Counted from the stretch's first letter, positions 2,268 through 49,464 are shown. The stretch is 64,000 bases of DNA from Candidatus Methylomirabilota bacterium (GCA_027293415.1 JAPUFX010000102.1:4803-68802); one strand, 5' to 3'. A program made the numbers and translations. Notes: generated by a model not told the origin, from the letters alone.

Positions 2268-3983
2268 ATGTTGCAAGAGATTGCCATACGACACTTCACG
2301 ATTGTAGAACAGGTACGCGCAAATTTCGGACCCGGCCTCAATGTCCTGACCGGGGAGACAGGGGCTGGCAAATCGATTGTCATAGAGGCCCTGACGCTTG
2401 CCCTGGGGGCGCGGGGGAGCTCAGAGATGATCCGATCTGGAGAAGAGGAGGCAGTGGTGGAAGCCGCCTTTAGCCTCCCGCACTTGAGCCCGGTAAATGA
2501 CCTCCTCGACTCACAGGGGATCAGCCTGAAGGAAGAGGACCTTGTTCTGCGACGGCACCTGGCCAGGGAGGGAAGAAGCCGGGCCTATGTGAGTGGAACC
2601 ATGACGGGGGCGGTTACGCTCAGGGGCTTGGGCGAGCATCTGGTGGACATTCATGGACAACAAGAAAGTGTTCTCCTGCAAAGTCCCCGCCGGCATCTCG
2701 AGCTGTTGGATGCTTTTGGTGGTCTCACAGAAGAGCTCCAAACCTATCACACCCTCTATCGTCGGTGGCAGACCCTGAAGGCAGAGCGGGAAGCGCTGGA
2801 GCGAGACGATCGGGAGAAAGCCCGATACAAAGATCTCCTGGAGCACCAGATTCGGGAGATCGATGCGGTCCATCTCGTGGAGGGAGAGGAGGACGCCCTG
2901 GAAGCGGAACGCGCCATCCTGACTCACCACGAGAAGCTTTTGCACGCGGTAGAGGAGGCTTATGCACGTATGGAGGGGGATGAGGGGGGGATCCTTCCCG
3001 GCCTCGCCGGGCTTGGCACGCGTCTCCGCGAGGCGGGACGAATTGATGCACGCCTCGCCCCCCTCGAAGGAATGGCAGAGGAGGGGAAGACCCTGCTGCA
3101 AGAGGTAGCACTTTCCCTCCGGGACTATCGAGAGCGACTTGATTTTGATCCTGAACGTCTGGAGGTCATTGAAGGTCGTCTCCACGCCATCAGCCGTCTC
3201 AAGAAAAAATATGGGGCCAGCATTCGCGAAGTCTTGAAATACCGGGAACAGGCAGCGCATGACTTGGAGCGGCTCGAGAGAGCGGAGGAGCGGCTTATGG
3301 CTCTCCAGGGGGAGATCGATACTGTTGAGGCAGACCTCTGGGAGCACGGAGAGTGCCTTTCCAAAGGGCGAAGGGAAGCGGCACAAAAACTCGCCCGGGA
3401 GATGATCAACGAGCTGCACGAGCTTGGGATGCCGCGGACGGATTTCCGTGTCGAGCTTAGGAGGACTATGGGAGAAGACCGGCGAGGCATGCTCAAGCCG
3501 GCCGGCCTGGAAGAGGGAGAGTTCCTTATTGCGCCGAACCCAGGCGAGGGTTTCAAAGCATTGGGGAAGATCGCCTCAGGCGGGGAGCTAAGCCGGATCA
3601 TGCTGGCCTTGAAAAACATCCTCGCCTCGGTCGATAAAACTCCCACGTTAATCTTCGATGAGGTGGATGCCGGAATCGGCGGGAAGATGGCTGAGGTGGT
3701 AGGCAGGAAGCTCTGGAGGGTGAGCCGGGAGCGACAGGTGATCTGCATTACCCACCTTCCGCAGATTGCCGCCTATGCCGATACCCACCTCCGGGTAGAG
3801 AAAGGTCTGATCAGCGGTCGGACCGAGGCTCGGCTCATGCCGCTGTCCAGGGAAGCGAAAGTAGAGGAGCTAAGTCGGATGCTCGGGGGATCCGACACCT
3901 CCGCTACAGCCATAAAACACGCCCGGGAACTCTTTCAGAGCGCTGCGCGTTGGAAGCGACAGCACGGAAAGGGACAGGGATGA
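2268..3983 (+). CDS. recN: DNA repair protein RecN
   Basis: N-terminal LTGETGAGKSI Walker A, a long coiled-coil middle, and C-terminal SGGELSRIMLALK..LIFDEVDAGIGG. Confidence 0.93.
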   Translation: MLQEIAIRHFTIVEQVRANFGPGLNVLTGETGAGKSIVIEALTLALGARGSSEMIRSGEEEAVVEAAFSLPHLSPVNDLLDSQGISLKEEDLVLRRHLAREGRSRAYVSGTMTGAVTLRGLGEHLVDIHGQQESVLLQSPRRHLELLDAFGGLTEELQTYHTLYRRWQTLKAEREALERDDREKARYKDLLEHQIREIDAVHLVEGEEDALEAERAILTHHEKLLHAVEEAYARMEGDEGGILPGLAGLGTRLREAGRIDARLAPLEGMAEEGKTLLQEVALSLRDYRERLDFDPERLEVIEGRLHAISRLKKKYGASIREVLKYREQAAHDLERLERAEERLMALQGEIDTVEADLWEHGECLSKGRREAAQKLAREMINELHELGMPRTDFRVELRRTMGEDRRGMLKPAGLEEGEFLIAPNPGEGFKALGKIASGGELSRIMLALKNILASVDKTPTLIFDEVDAGIGGKMAEVVGRKLWRVSRERQVICITHLPQIAAYADTHLRVEKGLISGRTEARLMPLSREAKVEELSRMLGGSDTSATAIKHARELFQSAARWKRQHGKGQG

Positions 3984-10185: not shown

Positions 10186-10313
10186 GTCTGTTGTTCCTGC
10201 CCGCGGTTTTCAATCAGAACATCTACCCTGTATCCTCCCACACTCTTCCCACGAATCATCCGGCCACCGCTCATCAACCAGGCCAATCTTCGCCCGCGAT
10301 CCGTGAAGTGGGC

Positions 10314-10342
10314 TTGTAAGCAGGGGAAGGCGTGTGTAGAAT
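10314..10342 (+). promoter_or_regulatory. Orphan sigma-70-type promoter in noncoding DNA
   Basis: TTGTAA, 17 nt, TAGAAT. No credible ORF lies downstream. A transcript from it would run toward and antisense to tRNA-Leu. Confidence 0.35.
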
Positions 10343-10590
10343 ATCGCACGACCTGTGGCATGGGTGGAACGGCAGATGATTCAAGGAGGGGTTGAACAGC
10401 GGCCCGCGATGCCGATTTCCTGAACCAAGAGCGCCCCCTTTCTTGACTGGTGTCGGTTTGCACATTAAAGGGGATATTCTTGAGGGAGAAACGGGCGATA
10501 CGTTTGCTGACTGTTGGAAATTTTGGTGAGAATGGGTAGGCCGGAAGGCCCGATCTAGCGGGAGGCAGCGTAGAAAGGCCGCTTCACGAT

Positions 10591-10677
10591 TGGTGCCGAA
10601 GGGGGGACTCGAACCCCCACGGGCTGACGCCCACATGGCCCTGAACCATGCGCGTCTACCAATTCCGCCACTTCGGC
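10591..10677 (-). tRNA. tRNA-Leu (anticodon CAG), 87 nt with long variable arm and encoded CCA
   Basis: The reverse complement reads GCCGAAGTGGCGGAATTGGTAGACGCGCATGGTTCAGGGCCATGTGGGCGTCAGCCCGTGGGGGTTCGAGTCCCCCCTTCGGCACCA. This gives a 7-bp acceptor stem, an anticodon loop TTCAGGG, and a GTTCGAGTC T-loop. Confidence 0.93.
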
Positions 10678-10687
10678 AACCAGTTTC

Positions 10688-10716
10688 TTTCTAAAGAAGC
10701 TGGAGGGAAAAGTCAA
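10688..10716 (-). promoter_or_regulatory. Sigma-70-type promoter for tRNA-Leu
   Basis: On the minus strand: TTGACT, 17 nt, TAGAAA. The -10 ends about 10 nt upstream of the mature tRNA 5' end. Confidence 0.5.
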
Positions 10717-10793
10717 CGAGAAAGTTGGCAAAAGTGAGGGCTCGGGGAGTGGGCCTTGGCCGGCGGAACATTTTCTACGGGGTGCGTTGGCGC

Positions 10794-11162
10794 GGCCAAC
10801 GGGTCCTGTCGCCTGTAGGCTCACCGGCTCGGGAGAGCATCCTTCGTCGGCGGAAAATTCCAGGGGGTGCCTGGGTGGAAGTCCTGTATTACGCGCCGAG
10901 TGGATTGTGAGGCATTAGGACGGCCATCCCCCACCTCCGCTTTGCTCCGGAGGGCGGGACCCCCTGGCCGAACGCAAACCAGGTTCCGCCTTCCTCAGGA
11001 TTTCCTCCCCTCGCCGGCTCGCAAGTCGTGCCAACGGGTGGCGCCGGGCGGGCGCCCAGCCGCCCGCAGGAGAATTTCGCCACCGACAGCTCTTTTCCGA
11101 ATGAAATGGAGCGTTAATTCTCCGAGGACGGCTGGGCTGCCAGGCGACAGGACCCGTTGGCC
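10794..11162 (+). repeat. Perfect 22-bp inverted repeat enclosing 325 nt of GC-rich noncoding sequence (candidate structured RNA, leader, or MITE-like element)
   Basis: ggccaacgggtcctgtcgcctg (10794-10815) is the exact reverse complement of caggcgacaggacccgttggcc (11141-11162). Pairing continues inward with G-U pairs that work only on the plus strand. No credible ORF lies inside. Confidence 0.6.
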
Positions 11163-11199
11163 GTCGGAGGTCAGGACACGGCGATCTTAGGAGGCCATC

Positions 11200-11598
11200 A
11201 TGGAACTCGTGGATGATCAGCATTGTTTCGTCTGTGGCAAGAAGAATGCTGCCGGACTTCAACTCGACTTCGAGCTCGTGGGGGAGGCAGAGGTGCAAAC
11301 CAGCTTTCTCCCGACAAAACAGTTTCAAGGGTTCAAGGACATTGTCCACGGGGGTATCATCGCCGCCATCCTCGATGAAGTGATGGTGAACGGAGTATGG
11401 CTTCGGGGGATCAGGGCCGTGACTGGAAAGTTGGAGGTTCGCCTCAAAAGCCCTGCAAGGGTGGGGGAACGTCTGCATTTTACCGGGAGGATTCTCCGAG
11501 ACACGGGCAAGACCGTGGAGATGGAAAGTTACGCTGCCACCTCCGGAGGGGCCATCGTCGCTGAGGCATCGGGGCTTCTCGTGAAGGTAGGCAGTTGA
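11200..11598 (+). CDS. PaaI-family hotdog-fold thioesterase
   Basis: 132 aa. Contains CFVCG..N..GL.L.F and HGG..A..LDE. The RBS is taggagg, 6 nt upstream of the start. Confidence 0.8.
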   Translation: MELVDDQHCFVCGKKNAAGLQLDFELVGEAEVQTSFLPTKQFQGFKDIVHGGIIAAILDEVMVNGVWLRGIRAVTGKLEVRLKSPARVGERLHFTGRILRDTGKTVEMESYAATSGGAIVAEASGLLVKVGS

Positions 11599-12407
11599 AG
11601 ATCATCACTCTTCTGACCGATTTCGGGAGTGCCGATCCCTTCGTCGGGATCATGAAAGGGGTAATCCTCGGGATCAACCCGCGGGTGGAAATCGTCGATC
11701 TGTGCCATGGGGTATCCCCGCAGGATGTCCTGGAAGCTGCCTTTCTCCTCCACTGTTCGTACCGGTATTTTCCCAGGGGGACCATTCATGTGATAGTGGT
11801 CGATCCGGGTGTGGGAGGCCCACGGAAGTCCCTCCTGGCCGAGGGGGTTCATGGATACTACATTGCCCCGGACAACGGGGTCTTGAGTTATCTCTTCGCA
11901 TCGGGTGAAATTCAACGGGTCGTGGAAATCACGGCGGAAGGATATTTCCTCCATCCCGTGAGTCAGACGTTTCACGGGCGAGATATCTTCGCACCGGTGG
12001 CGGCGCATCTTTCGGGTGGGGAGACACTCGACCGCTTTGGCAGACCTACCACCACCTACGTGCGCCTGGTGCTCCCCACACCCGAGAAAAAAAGGGAAGG
12101 ACACCTTGTTGGATCCGTGCTTCATGTGGACCGGTTCGGGAATCTGGTGACCAATATCTCCACCTCCGATATTTCGGGATTTCGTGAATTCAGGGTTTCG
12201 GTCAAGAACAGGAAAATTCACGGGCTTGTGGAGAGCTATGAATCTCTGACGGCGGGAGAAATAGGCACCATCCTGGGTAGTGCCGGCTATTTGGAGATCT
12301 TTACGAACCGCGGCAGTGCCGCGCGTGTCCTGAAGGCGGGACGGGGGGCAACCGTTCGCGTGGTGCCGGAGAGAAAGGCGAGAGGGAAGGGCAGGATCTC
12401 GGGCTGA
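11595..12407 (+). CDS. SAM hydrolase / SAM hydroxide adenosyltransferase family protein (DUF62)
   Basis: The N-terminal ITLLTDFGSADPFVGIMKGVI is diagnostic for DUF62. It overlaps the thioesterase gene by 4 nt. Confidence 0.85.
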   Translation: MKIITLLTDFGSADPFVGIMKGVILGINPRVEIVDLCHGVSPQDVLEAAFLLHCSYRYFPRGTIHVIVVDPGVGGPRKSLLAEGVHGYYIAPDNGVLSYLFASGEIQRVVEITAEGYFLHPVSQTFHGRDIFAPVAAHLSGGETLDRFGRPTTTYVRLVLPTPEKKREGHLVGSVLHVDRFGNLVTNISTSDISGFREFRVSVKNRKIHGLVESYESLTAGEIGTILGSAGYLEIFTNRGSAARVLKAGRGATVRVVPERKARGKGRISG

Positions 12408-23641: not shown

Positions 23642-23695
23642 GATCCCCCGGACAGGGTCGCGGGGGAAGATTCCGAGGAAAGGGGGTGAGAAAGA

Positions 23696-23773
23696 GTGGC
23701 CAAGAAGAAAAAGAAAGCCGCAGGCAAAGCCAAGAAGGCAGCCAAGAAGAAAACCACCAAGAAGAAGAAATAG
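23696..23773 (+). CDS. Micro-ORF 1, 25 codons: (M)AKKKKKAAGKAKKAAKKKTTKKKK
   Basis: GTG start 5-8 nt after the SD-like AAGGGGGTGA, ending at TAG. Duplicated with a conserved leader. Below the ORF-track cutoff. Confidence 0.4.
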   Translation: MAKKKKKAAGKAKKAAKKKTTKKKK

Positions 23774-23830
23774 GAGCGATACCTCACAAGGTCGCGGGTA
23801 AAGACCTGCGAGGAAAGGGGGTGAGAAAGG

Positions 23831-23902
23831 GTGGCAACGAAGAGGAAAGCTGCAGCAAAGAAGACGAAGGCCAAGGCTGCCCCCAAGAAGAAGAAGAAAT
23901 AG
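23831..23902 (+). CDS. Micro-ORF 2, 23 codons: (M)ATKRKAAAKKTKAKAAPKKKKK
   Basis: Same SD block and GTG spacing as micro-ORF 1. The length difference from copy 1 is 6 nt, which preserves the frame. Composition is preserved. Confidence 0.4.
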   Translation: MATKRKAAAKKTKAKAAPKKKKK

Positions 23903-23911
23903 GGGTGCCTC

Positions 23912-48201: not shown

Positions 48202-49383
48202 ATGAAGATTCACGAGTATCAAGCAAAAGAAATTCTCGCTGCTTACGGCGTCCCTGTTCCCCAAGGAGAAGTTGTTACCGCTGCCTCCGATGCCAAGAGG
48301 GCGGCTTCACGGCTTGGGGGGACTGTGGTGGTTAAGGCCCAAATCCATGCAGGGGGACGAGGAAAAGGGGGCGGGGTGAAGTTGGCCCGATCAGCAGAGG
48401 AGGCGGAACGGATTGCTAGTGAAATACTCGGAAAGCCTCTTGTCACTCCTCAGACCGGACCTGAAGGAACGATTGTCCGGCAGGTGCTGATCGAAGAGGG
48501 AGTTGACATTCGCCGGGAACTCTATGCTGGAATTGTTCTCGATCGAAAGGCAAGCATGCCTGTCGTGATGGCCAGCGAGGCCGGAGGGATGGAAATTGAA
48601 GAAGTGGCGGCCCGCAGCCCGGAAAAGATCTTGAAAGTTGCCGTCGACCCCGCGGTCGGATTCTCTGCCTTCGCCGGGAGAAAACTCGCATACGGGCTTG
48701 CGCTGGACGGAGGATTAGCAGCCCAGGGTGCAGACCTCTTCTCAAAACTCTATCGTGTCTTTCAAGAAAAGGACTGTTCATTGGCCGAAATTAATCCTCT
48801 GGTGCAAACGGACGGAGGGCTCCTCGCGCTTGATGCAAAGATTACTTTTGATGATAATGGCCTCTTCCGCCACCAGGAGATCGTTGCGCTTCGAGATCTT
48901 CACGAGGAGTCCCCACTGGAGGTTGAGGCATCGCACTTTCGCCTCAGTTACATCAAGTTAGATGGGACCGTGGGGTGTATGGTAAACGGGGCTGGCCTCG
49001 CCATGGCCACCATGGACATCATCAAGCTCGCTGGAGGCGAGCCGGCAAATTTCCTTGACGTAGGAGGAGGGGCGAGCGCGGAACAGATTGAAAATGCCTT
49101 TCGCATCCTCCTTGCGGACAAAGGGATCCGGGCTGTTCTGATCAATATCTTTGGAGGCATCCTTCGTTGCGATCGCCTTGCAGAGGGACTGATTCAGGCG
49201 GTGAAGACCCTGCAGGTAAAGGTCCCTGTGGTGATCCGGATGGAGGGGACCAATGTAGAGCTGGGCAGGCAGATGCTTGAGGAATCTGGACTCAATTTCC
49301 TCACCGCCAGCACGATGGCCGATGCCGCAACCCGGGCGGTCGAGGCCGCCAAGGGGGTTCACAGTTCAGGGTTCAGAGTCTAG
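48202..49383 (+). CDS. sucC: Succinyl-CoA synthetase beta subunit
   Basis: [11 protein letters not shown]...GVP.P, NIFGGI.RCD. The C-terminal ...VHSSGFRV tail is encoded by the repeat element described in the findings. Confidence 0.93.
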
Positions 49384-49464
49384 GGTGAAGAGTTCCGGGT
49401 TGGGTTCGTCGGTGATGGGGGAATCGCTACAATTTTCATGAACTCTGAACCTTGAACCCTGAAC
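49357..49464 (+). repeat. Heptad-repeat inverted repeat (23-nt arms, 62-nt spacer) spanning the sucC stop
   Basis: The left arm gttcaca gttcagg gttcagagt pairs with the right arm actctgaac cttgaac cctgaac. That gives 20 Watson-Crick pairs, 1 G-U pair and 2 mismatches. Confidence 0.7.

Follow-up and report, generated by a model that had tools for sequence, protein, structure and literature searches.

The locus and its features

The stretch of DNA considered here, referred to as the window, is 64,000 nucleotides (nt) from a Candidatus Methylomirabilota bacterium (GCA_027293415.1, JAPUFX010000102.1:4803-68802), and the subject of this analysis is a structured, non-coding element of 369 nt that lies within it between a tRNA-Leu gene and the gene for a thioesterase. 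The gene order AIRS - DUF4013 - tRNA-Leu(CAG, minus strand) - thioesterase - SAM_HAT is shared by all fetched relatives that include those genes (comparison loci carry L numbers below), the locus in GCA_041931505.1 (L001) is identical, and homologues of the thioesterase are labelled NC10 or Candidatus Methylomirabilales. The thioesterase, of the 4HBT/PaaI type, occupies 11200-11598, the last 4 nt of which are shared with the overlapping SAM_HAT (DUF62) gene. An earlier note, made from the sequence alone, had placed the ATG of the thioesterase 37 nt past the right end of the element, coupled the gene to DUF62, and described an untranslated stretch of about 520 nt without a believable protein. 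These descriptions hold: the ATG is at 11200, the coupled DUF62 gene is confirmed, there are 522 nt from tRNA-Leu to the thioesterase, and neither the 107-amino-acid open reading frame (plus strand) nor the 187-amino-acid one (minus strand) has a Pfam match.

The element is a full-length composite of three parts, namely a 20-nt end motif (M), a multi-helix module (A) and an inverted hairpin unit (B), and it is bounded by two inverted copies of M. The features of the spacer are as follows.

10591-10677, minus strand: tRNA-Leu(CAG), given for context; divergent from the thioesterase operon
10688-10716, minus strand: putative tRNA-Leu promoter; TTGACT (10716-10711), 17-nt spacer, TAGAAA (10693-10688)
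10739-10790, plus strand: orphan left half of a type II A-module (GGCTCGGGGAGTGGGCCTTGGCCGGCGGAAC...), forming an internal direct repeat with 10826-10875
10793-10815, plus strand: left arm, holding M (GGCCAACGGGTCCTGTCGCC, 10794-10813), about 10 nt before the first A-module helix
10824-11026, read on the plus strand: A-module (type I), nested helices with a variable interior
11029-11162, minus strand: unit B, with M at its 5' end, an asymmetric CCU/U bulge, covarying stems, a variable tip and a 3' end of GGCGCCACCCGTTGGCA
11141-11163, minus strand: right arm, which serves both as unit B's M end and as the composite's right terminus

An inverted repeat made of two copies of one motif

Exact reverse complements at 10793-10815 and 11141-11163 bound 371 nt and enclose a segment of 325 nt. 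The repeat is 23 bp long, one base more than the 22 bp of the earlier note. The 23-mer was found nowhere else in the window, even with up to three mismatches, and none of 100 dinucleotide-preserving shuffles gave a match. Both arms contain M, an invariant motif that the window therefore holds twice in opposite orientations, and the perfect 22-23-bp stem is explained by these two copies of an invariant end rather than by an evolved RNA helix. The pairings read just inside the arms are also present (GGCUCA/UGGGCU with two G-U pairs, and CUCGGGAGAG/UUCUCCGAG with one bulge), and these reflect the 80% similarity of two inverted, homologous ends, the first ~45 nt on the A side and on the B side.

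Local hairpins at 10860-10874, 10934-10951 and 11037-11084 are present as described. A long-range helix between GGAAGTCCTG (10877-10886) and CAGGATTTCC (10996-11005) can be drawn with 10 bp, including one G-U pair, but when read by eye it is not kept in L020 or L048, and a competing ATCCT/AGGAT helix covaries. The two strands fold equally well, with energies of -201.2 kcal/mol for the plus strand and -206.7 kcal/mol for the minus strand (z -7.8 and -7.7), so that the proposed plus-strand-specific G-U pairing fails for the element as a whole.

Two structured modules with compensatory change

In most copies of the family, when read with M at the 5' end, the unit is a hairpin of 112-140 nt (unit B, M ... 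M'). This is composed of an 11-bp stem (GGCCAACGGGT/ACCCGTTGGCC), an asymmetric CCU/U bulge, a CGCC/GGCG helix and covarying stems, such as CCCAGCCG/CGGCTGGG compared with CCCCACCG/CGGTGGGG; copies from Acidobacteriota are entirely different in this region. The ends of the simple unit are asymmetric, in that M' does not have the CCTGT bulge of M. A covariance model of the unit (R1) matched the window's minus strand at 11029-11162 with 127.5 bits (E 1e-26), compared with 25.6 bits for the plus strand. The right third of the element thus fits the family when read on the minus strand, and what the earlier note took as the right arm is where such a unit B has its 5' end.

The same model finds 32 strong units across the fetched loci, and an alignment of 28 distinct units (A4) was used to assess their pairing. 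In this alignment, 92% of cells are paired, compared with 35-48% in slid controls, and both sides have changed in 15 of the 34 pairs, a value that none of 500 shuffles matched. The strand of the unit is less clear. There are 53 G-T cells and 25 A-C cells, 45 of the former lying in three conserved pairs, and outside those pairs the balance is 8 G-T to 23 A-C; since the three conserved pairs dominate the G-U count, these numbers assign no strand. The units themselves face either way with respect to the genes beside them, with flips between relatives.

The A-module begins 10 nt downstream of the M of the left arm. Its helices are P1 (CCGGCTCGGGAGAG/CTCCCCTCGCCGG), P2 (ATCCT/AGGAT), P3 (GGCGGAA/TTCCGCC) and P4 (CCAGGGGGT/ACCCCCTGG), along with a conserved joiner, GGCCGAACGCAAACCAG, and the minimum free energy fold of the element uses the same helices as this hand-derived structure. 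Copies elsewhere are found in L020 (83% identical over 248 nt, on another contig of the metagenome-assembled genome (MAG) that holds L018), in L059/L021/L050 (a longer form of ~330 nt), and in L049, L060, L048 and L029. They fall into two flavours that covary at P2, ATCCT/AGGAT and GGGCCT/AGGCCC. In a small sample of nine copies, scored against the structure drawn by hand, 79.5% of cells are paired compared with 37-56% in slid controls, 11 pairs have changed on both sides, and the covariation score was reached by 0 of 500 shuffles. M lies directly upstream of A in the window, L032, L020, L049, L053 and L066, and a diverged M is in that position in L034 and L060. Composites that run from M to an inverted M also occur at unrelated loci, with lengths of ~193 nt (L021/L050/L055), ~370 nt (L049) and ~538 nt (L043).

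A dispersed family beside housekeeping genes

The family is previously uncatalogued, and is present in Methylomirabilota (NC10) and in two MAGs of Acidobacteriota. Public scans for M considered exact matches to the 20-mer in one genome per GTDB species and in JGI metagenomes. Among the GTDB representatives, 14 stretches carry exact M; most belong to NC10 MAGs, and seven of the 14 are on different contigs of one MAG; the Acidobacteriota matches come from one Acidobacteriota MAG and one Thermoanaerobaculia MAG. Only L032 among these stretches is the orthologous locus. The metagenomes added 34 further stretches, all of which lack the thioesterase, the SAM_HAT gene and tRNA-Leu(CAG). Clustering of upstream flanks at the 45 exact-M sites with sufficient flanking sequence, from genomes and metagenomes together, gave 32 distinct contexts.

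Where the neighbours of units were checked they are housekeeping genes, encoding IF3, L20, PheS, a tRNA-editing protein, DapA, an aminotransferase, HPPK (folK-like) and dNK. For example, units occupy two successive spacers in the arrangement infC-rplT-[unit]-pheS-[unit]-tRNA-editing gene, and the rplT-pheS spacer alone has three combinations of modules among close relatives. The presence of the family at dozens of unrelated places argues that the element is most likely repeat DNA, probably mobile, and not a regulatory RNA for the thioesterase and SAM_HAT genes. A virus is not indicated as its source, as M has no matches in IMG/VR and five matches there to an 18-mer of the A-module are due to chance, with no extended similarity.

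The comparison with Rfam suggested by the earlier note gave no family for the element. With Rfam 15, on both strands, the window region at E <= 1 matched tRNA only, and nothing was found over the repeat units in 14 loci at the gathering score or in L059 and L049 at E <= 5. RNase P RNA, transfer-messenger RNA, ribozymes like that of hepatitis delta virus, and cyclic di-GMP and cobalamin riboswitches, considered on the basis of snippets of the sequence, were dropped on this ground. As a separate observation, the contig of L049, which carries a full composite copy, also encodes a bacterial RNase P class A RNA (3230-3663, minus strand, 305.8 bits), and this marks the contig as chromosomal.

History of the orthologous spacer

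The distance from the tRNA to the ATG of the thioesterase varies widely among orthologous loci.

L011, L012, L014-L017 and L036: spacer of 72-75 nt; element absent (three lineages)
L013: spacer of 269 nt; unrelated insertion of ~194 nt
L037: spacer of 208 nt; decayed fragment of the element
L018: spacer of 405 nt; diverged homologue without the left arm
L005 (same species): spacer of 254 nt; window positions 10729-10997 missing (a 269-nt deletion), with flanks 99.3-100% identical

The element is dispensable at this site, as its presence and absence in orthologous operons demonstrate. What is left of it in L005 has 4-10% mismatches, which are clustered. The insertion in L013 (2739-2932 in GCA_044230885.1) is a separate matter: it lies between the 5' end of tRNA-Leu and the promoter, is bordered by TAGC at either end, carries GTGAATAAT/ATTATTCAC inverted repeats internally, and resembles a small mobile element of another kind.

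Where the element is retained, it has often followed a different course from its flanks. Coding DNA is 80% identical between the window and L032, a distant lineage, with third codon positions at 60%, whereas 10661-11162 is 93-100% identical and identity drops to 78% directly past the right arm (11162). In L073, a close relative, the flanks are collinear and the whole segment bounded by the inverted repeats is inverted; it is 93.5% identical once flipped and unalignable in the same orientation. The A-module is also inverted in L034/L035 and in L072, and in L072 unit B itself is flipped. In the flipped lineages the arm on the A side has decayed to 19 of 22 matches or worse, and there is no compensating change in the other arm. 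This uncompensated drift indicates that the long closing helix is not selected as a helix, contrary to the idea of an unusually long P1 in an RNA.

Taken together, the aligned loci show an element history that is decoupled from the flanks, in which deletion, inversion and, apparently, exchange between lineages have all occurred. Homologous recombination between copies of the repeat is the likeliest cause of these events. The downstream genes also form a mosaic when L073 (553-1640) is compared with 11200-12290 of the window, with 88.5% nucleotide identity in the thioesterase gene and 96.4% in the adjacent SAM_HAT gene, and this pattern suggests that recombination here may extend beyond the repeat itself. 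Upstream of the composite, the orphan sequence at 10739-10790 matches the type II copies L018, L048, L029 and L037, which suggests that an older resident copy left it behind when most of that copy was replaced by the newer type I composite.

Putative promoters and other sequences around the tRNA gene

A block of the form aaaagtcaa(c/t)g.gaaagt is kept in every orthologous spacer that was read, and all extra DNA at these spacers sits beyond it. From its conservation and position, this block, with TTGACT-17-TAGAAA on the minus strand, is the putative promoter of tRNA-Leu, although a consensus promoter scan did not report it. The same type of scan gave no sigma-70-like promoter or terminator signature within 10793-11163. 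A promoter-like site on the plus strand at 10314-10342 (TTGTAA-17-TAGAAT) is conserved in L072, where it abuts the antisense side of tRNA-Leu. Transcription of the thioesterase operon could start here and cross the tRNA gene in antisense, which would give the window a leader of ~850 nt. It falls within a stretch of 405 nt without a called gene (10186-10590), between DUF4013 and the 3' end of tRNA-Leu, which relatives conserve only in part (L017 is 66% identical over ~200 nt); the corresponding gap at loci of the L011 type is ~200 nt.

Comparison with known repeat families

The nearest relatives in function and architecture are REPIN/BIME, ERIC/RIME, and MITEs (miniature inverted-repeat transposable elements) that bear terminal inverted repeats. 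A full-text search of one library of papers found none on repeat elements in Methylomirabilis. REPINs and BIMEs are doublets of REP sequences and bacterial interspersed mosaic elements, respectively, mobilized by RAYT Y1 transposases (PMC3337134, PMC3116915, PMC3333891), and a GTAG or CGTC tag is the signature of the two REP superfamilies (PMC3733652). They resemble the present family in being intergenic, non-coding and multi-copy, located within housekeeping operons and with no recognized target-site duplication, and in having two conserved, inverted end motifs that form a hairpin of ~110 nt, with mosaics of a few modules in either orientation. Unit B is likewise an inverted doublet, M...M', with 92% of its cells paired. 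However, M is not a hairpin of 20-40 nt and cannot form one (only six of ten positions are self-complementary by hand count), no conserved GTAG or CGTC tag stands beside the units, and the A-module, a multi-helix domain of 200-330 nt, has no REP counterpart. Strict REP membership fails because M is not a tagged palindrome of 20-40 nt. A RAYT gene is absent from the gene list within 10 kb of the window copy, although no search aimed at RAYT was made.

The ERIC (or IRU) sequences of enterobacteria and the RIME sequences of rhizobia are imperfect palindromes of ~127 nt in transcribed intergenic regions, with size variants that arise from internal insertions. They have no known transposase, are variably present among close relatives, and can exceed their flanks in conservation. 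The present family is alike in these respects, but no sequence similarity is expected, the host phyla differ, and the ends of this family are an exact 20-mer across two phyla.

MITEs such as Correia/NEMIS of Neisseria are small, lack open reading frames, have perfect terminal inverted repeats, and are dispersed, nested or composite, with insertion next to promoters; as with these elements, a long duplex would, when transcribed, be a plausible substrate for RNase III. The earlier note had included a MITE-like insertion among its candidates, and this is essentially right: the element is a small copy from a dispersed family with multiple copies, it has inverted-repeat ends, and its internal open reading frames have no Pfam match. 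Differences are that the ends of the simple unit are asymmetric and that neither a target-site duplication nor a parent, autonomous insertion sequence with the same ends was found at the loci covered, for which reason strict membership is unproven.

Other systems were less similar. In the attC sites of integrons, an imperfect hairpin of 55-140 nt carries the R''/R' core sites RYYYAAC ... GTTRRRY. GGCCAAC ... GTTGGCC in the present units matches this consensus at six of seven positions at each end, but the spacer is fully paired, unlike that of attC. This candidate was rejected, as the units stand alone or point in mixed directions inside housekeeping operons, not in single-orientation cassette arrays with intI. 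Integration at a tRNA gene was rejected as well, since the element is on the 5', promoter side of the tRNA and not at its 3' end.

Interpretation and alternatives

We consider it likely that the element is a copy of a dispersed, non-coding family of mosaic palindromic repeats, and is selfish or structural DNA of the MITE, REPIN, BIME and ERIC kind. Copies would spread as DNA through a protein that recognizes the M ends, perhaps in the form of a folded single strand with the conserved bulge, and homologous recombination among copies would then shuffle the modules. At this locus, the spacer that separates the tRNA-Leu promoter from the thioesterase/SAM_HAT operon would have held an older type II A-module before the current copy, and that copy has since been subject to partial deletion, inversion as a whole, or apparent exchange between lineages. 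Effects on the thioesterase operon or on tRNA-Leu would be incidental, such as that of a stable hairpin in a long 5' untranslated region (UTR), which is known for REP, ERIC and Correia elements. If the site at 10314-10342 does drive the operon, the element would be merely a part of a long, structured 5' UTR.

Several observations weigh against this interpretation. No target-site duplication was recognized at the copies inspected, where flanks often extend the palindrome, and the close relatives compared offered no clean pair of empty and filled sites. In 465 kb of fetched DNA, no M and inverted M are 0.7-6 kb apart, the spacing of an insertion sequence, so that no open reading frame bounded by M came to light, and no transposase lies beside the copies checked; the mechanism of mobility is unproven for these two reasons. 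The MAG holding L032, the GTDB representative of a sister lineage, has exact M at this locus only, and the window has one copy, as motif search, covariance model and BLAST each gave this locus alone within the 64 kb that they covered. Several comparison loci are short metagenomic contigs, with chimeric assembly possible for L032 and L073, whereas L034 and L035 come from two independent assemblies that agree with each other. Finally, the invariance of M across two phyla, together with the covarying interiors, would fit a family selected as RNA too.

That the family is kept because its transcripts act as RNA appears unlikely. Hairpins in operon spacers and UTRs could modulate mRNA decay, termination or translation, or the units could be small RNA genes, and the window copy would be a structured 5'-UTR element of the thioesterase operon, which is compatible with a mobile origin. 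Compensatory changes are present in both modules, NC10 and Acidobacteriota copies share an identical M despite wholly different interiors, units are found within operons (in the rplT-pheS gap and past pheS), and a U-G pair is conserved in 24 of the 28 units when these are read with M first. The conserved promoter-like site on the plus strand could also transcribe through the element. However, the strand signal is inconsistent once the three conserved pairs are set apart, units take both orientations with respect to neighbouring genes and flip among relatives, the element has no detected promoter or terminator signature of its own, and close relatives dispense with whole copies.

A more speculative proposal, to which we give a low probability, is that units bounded by M are a new class of mobile or invertible DNA. 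Their ends would be recognized as a folded single strand, with the 11-bp stem and the conserved asymmetric CCU/U bulge, by a dedicated recombinase (for example of the HUH/Y1, IS110-like or tyrosine type), or else the A-module would encode a structured RNA for its own mobility. At this locus, such activity would flip the 325-nt segment between the tRNA promoter and the operon.

It is very improbable that the segment between the inverted repeats is a site-specific switch that controls the thioesterase/SAM_HAT operon or the divergent tRNA-Leu gene, as in the invertons of fim and hin. The element resembles these in that perfect 23-bp inverted repeats flank a 325-nt segment in a divergent, promoter-proximal spacer, and both orientations are seen among relatives with collinear flanks (the window and L032 compared with L073, L072 and L034), although between lineages only. 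Nevertheless, flipped copies are 6.5% divergent from the window copy and their arms have diverged without compensation, which points to old, fixed inversions and not to ongoing switching. Nine contigs that have an identical thioesterase and cover the region show the orientation of the window or are too short to tell, and L005 carries the deletion. Along with this, the scan found no sigma-70-like promoter inside the segment, no recombinase or invertase is among the genes within ~10 kb (gene list of L001), and the same inverted repeats bound composites at many unrelated loci.

The proposal of a riboswitch-like leader, or of an RNA excised by RNase III, dedicated to the thioesterase/DUF62 operon is practically untenable: it would account for the position immediately upstream of the operon, the strong fold (z = -7.8) and some plus-strand G-U pairs beside the arms, but it is refuted by the absence of the element from orthologous spacers in three lineages (in others it is inverted), an outcome that the earlier note had itself named as refuting, and by the occurrence of its modules next to unrelated genes (rplT, pheS, dapA, folK-like, dNK), as well as conflicting with the equal fold of the minus strand, the fit of unit B to that strand, and the lack of an Rfam match at E <= 1.

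Other repeats in the window and its relatives

Inverted tracts of heptamers of the GGTTCAG/TGAACC type are present at 49356-49460 of the window and at 1-100 of L074, where the tract is just upstream of the ATG of the thioesterase. Tracts of this type also flank M-hairpin units at other NC10 loci, namely L025, L039, L042, L047, L051 and L063, and they may represent a second family of repeats that co-occurs with the M family. Elsewhere in the window, direct repeats form two pairs at 23674-23911, one of 35 nt with 91% identity and one of 32 nt with 75%, spaced 126-135 nt apart. A short unit that contains AAGAAGAAGAAATAG appears to have been duplicated there in tandem.

Significance

For the discovery of structured RNAs, the locus provides an example of a false positive, as a perfect, long P1 and a strong z-score of the fold can arise from two inverted ends of a repeat family. 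It tells us nothing about the regulation of the SAM hydrolase or the thioesterase. For the annotation of NC10 genomes, it offers a repeat family that is absent from Rfam and is defined by its end motif together with the hairpin unit and the multi-helix module, along with a working covariance model for the hairpin unit. These repeats may break metagenomic assemblies, and they mark hotspots of recombination at which a promoter-proximal spacer has undergone deletion, inversion and apparent exchange between lineages. That the 20-nt end is invariant in two phyla hints at a conserved protein partner.

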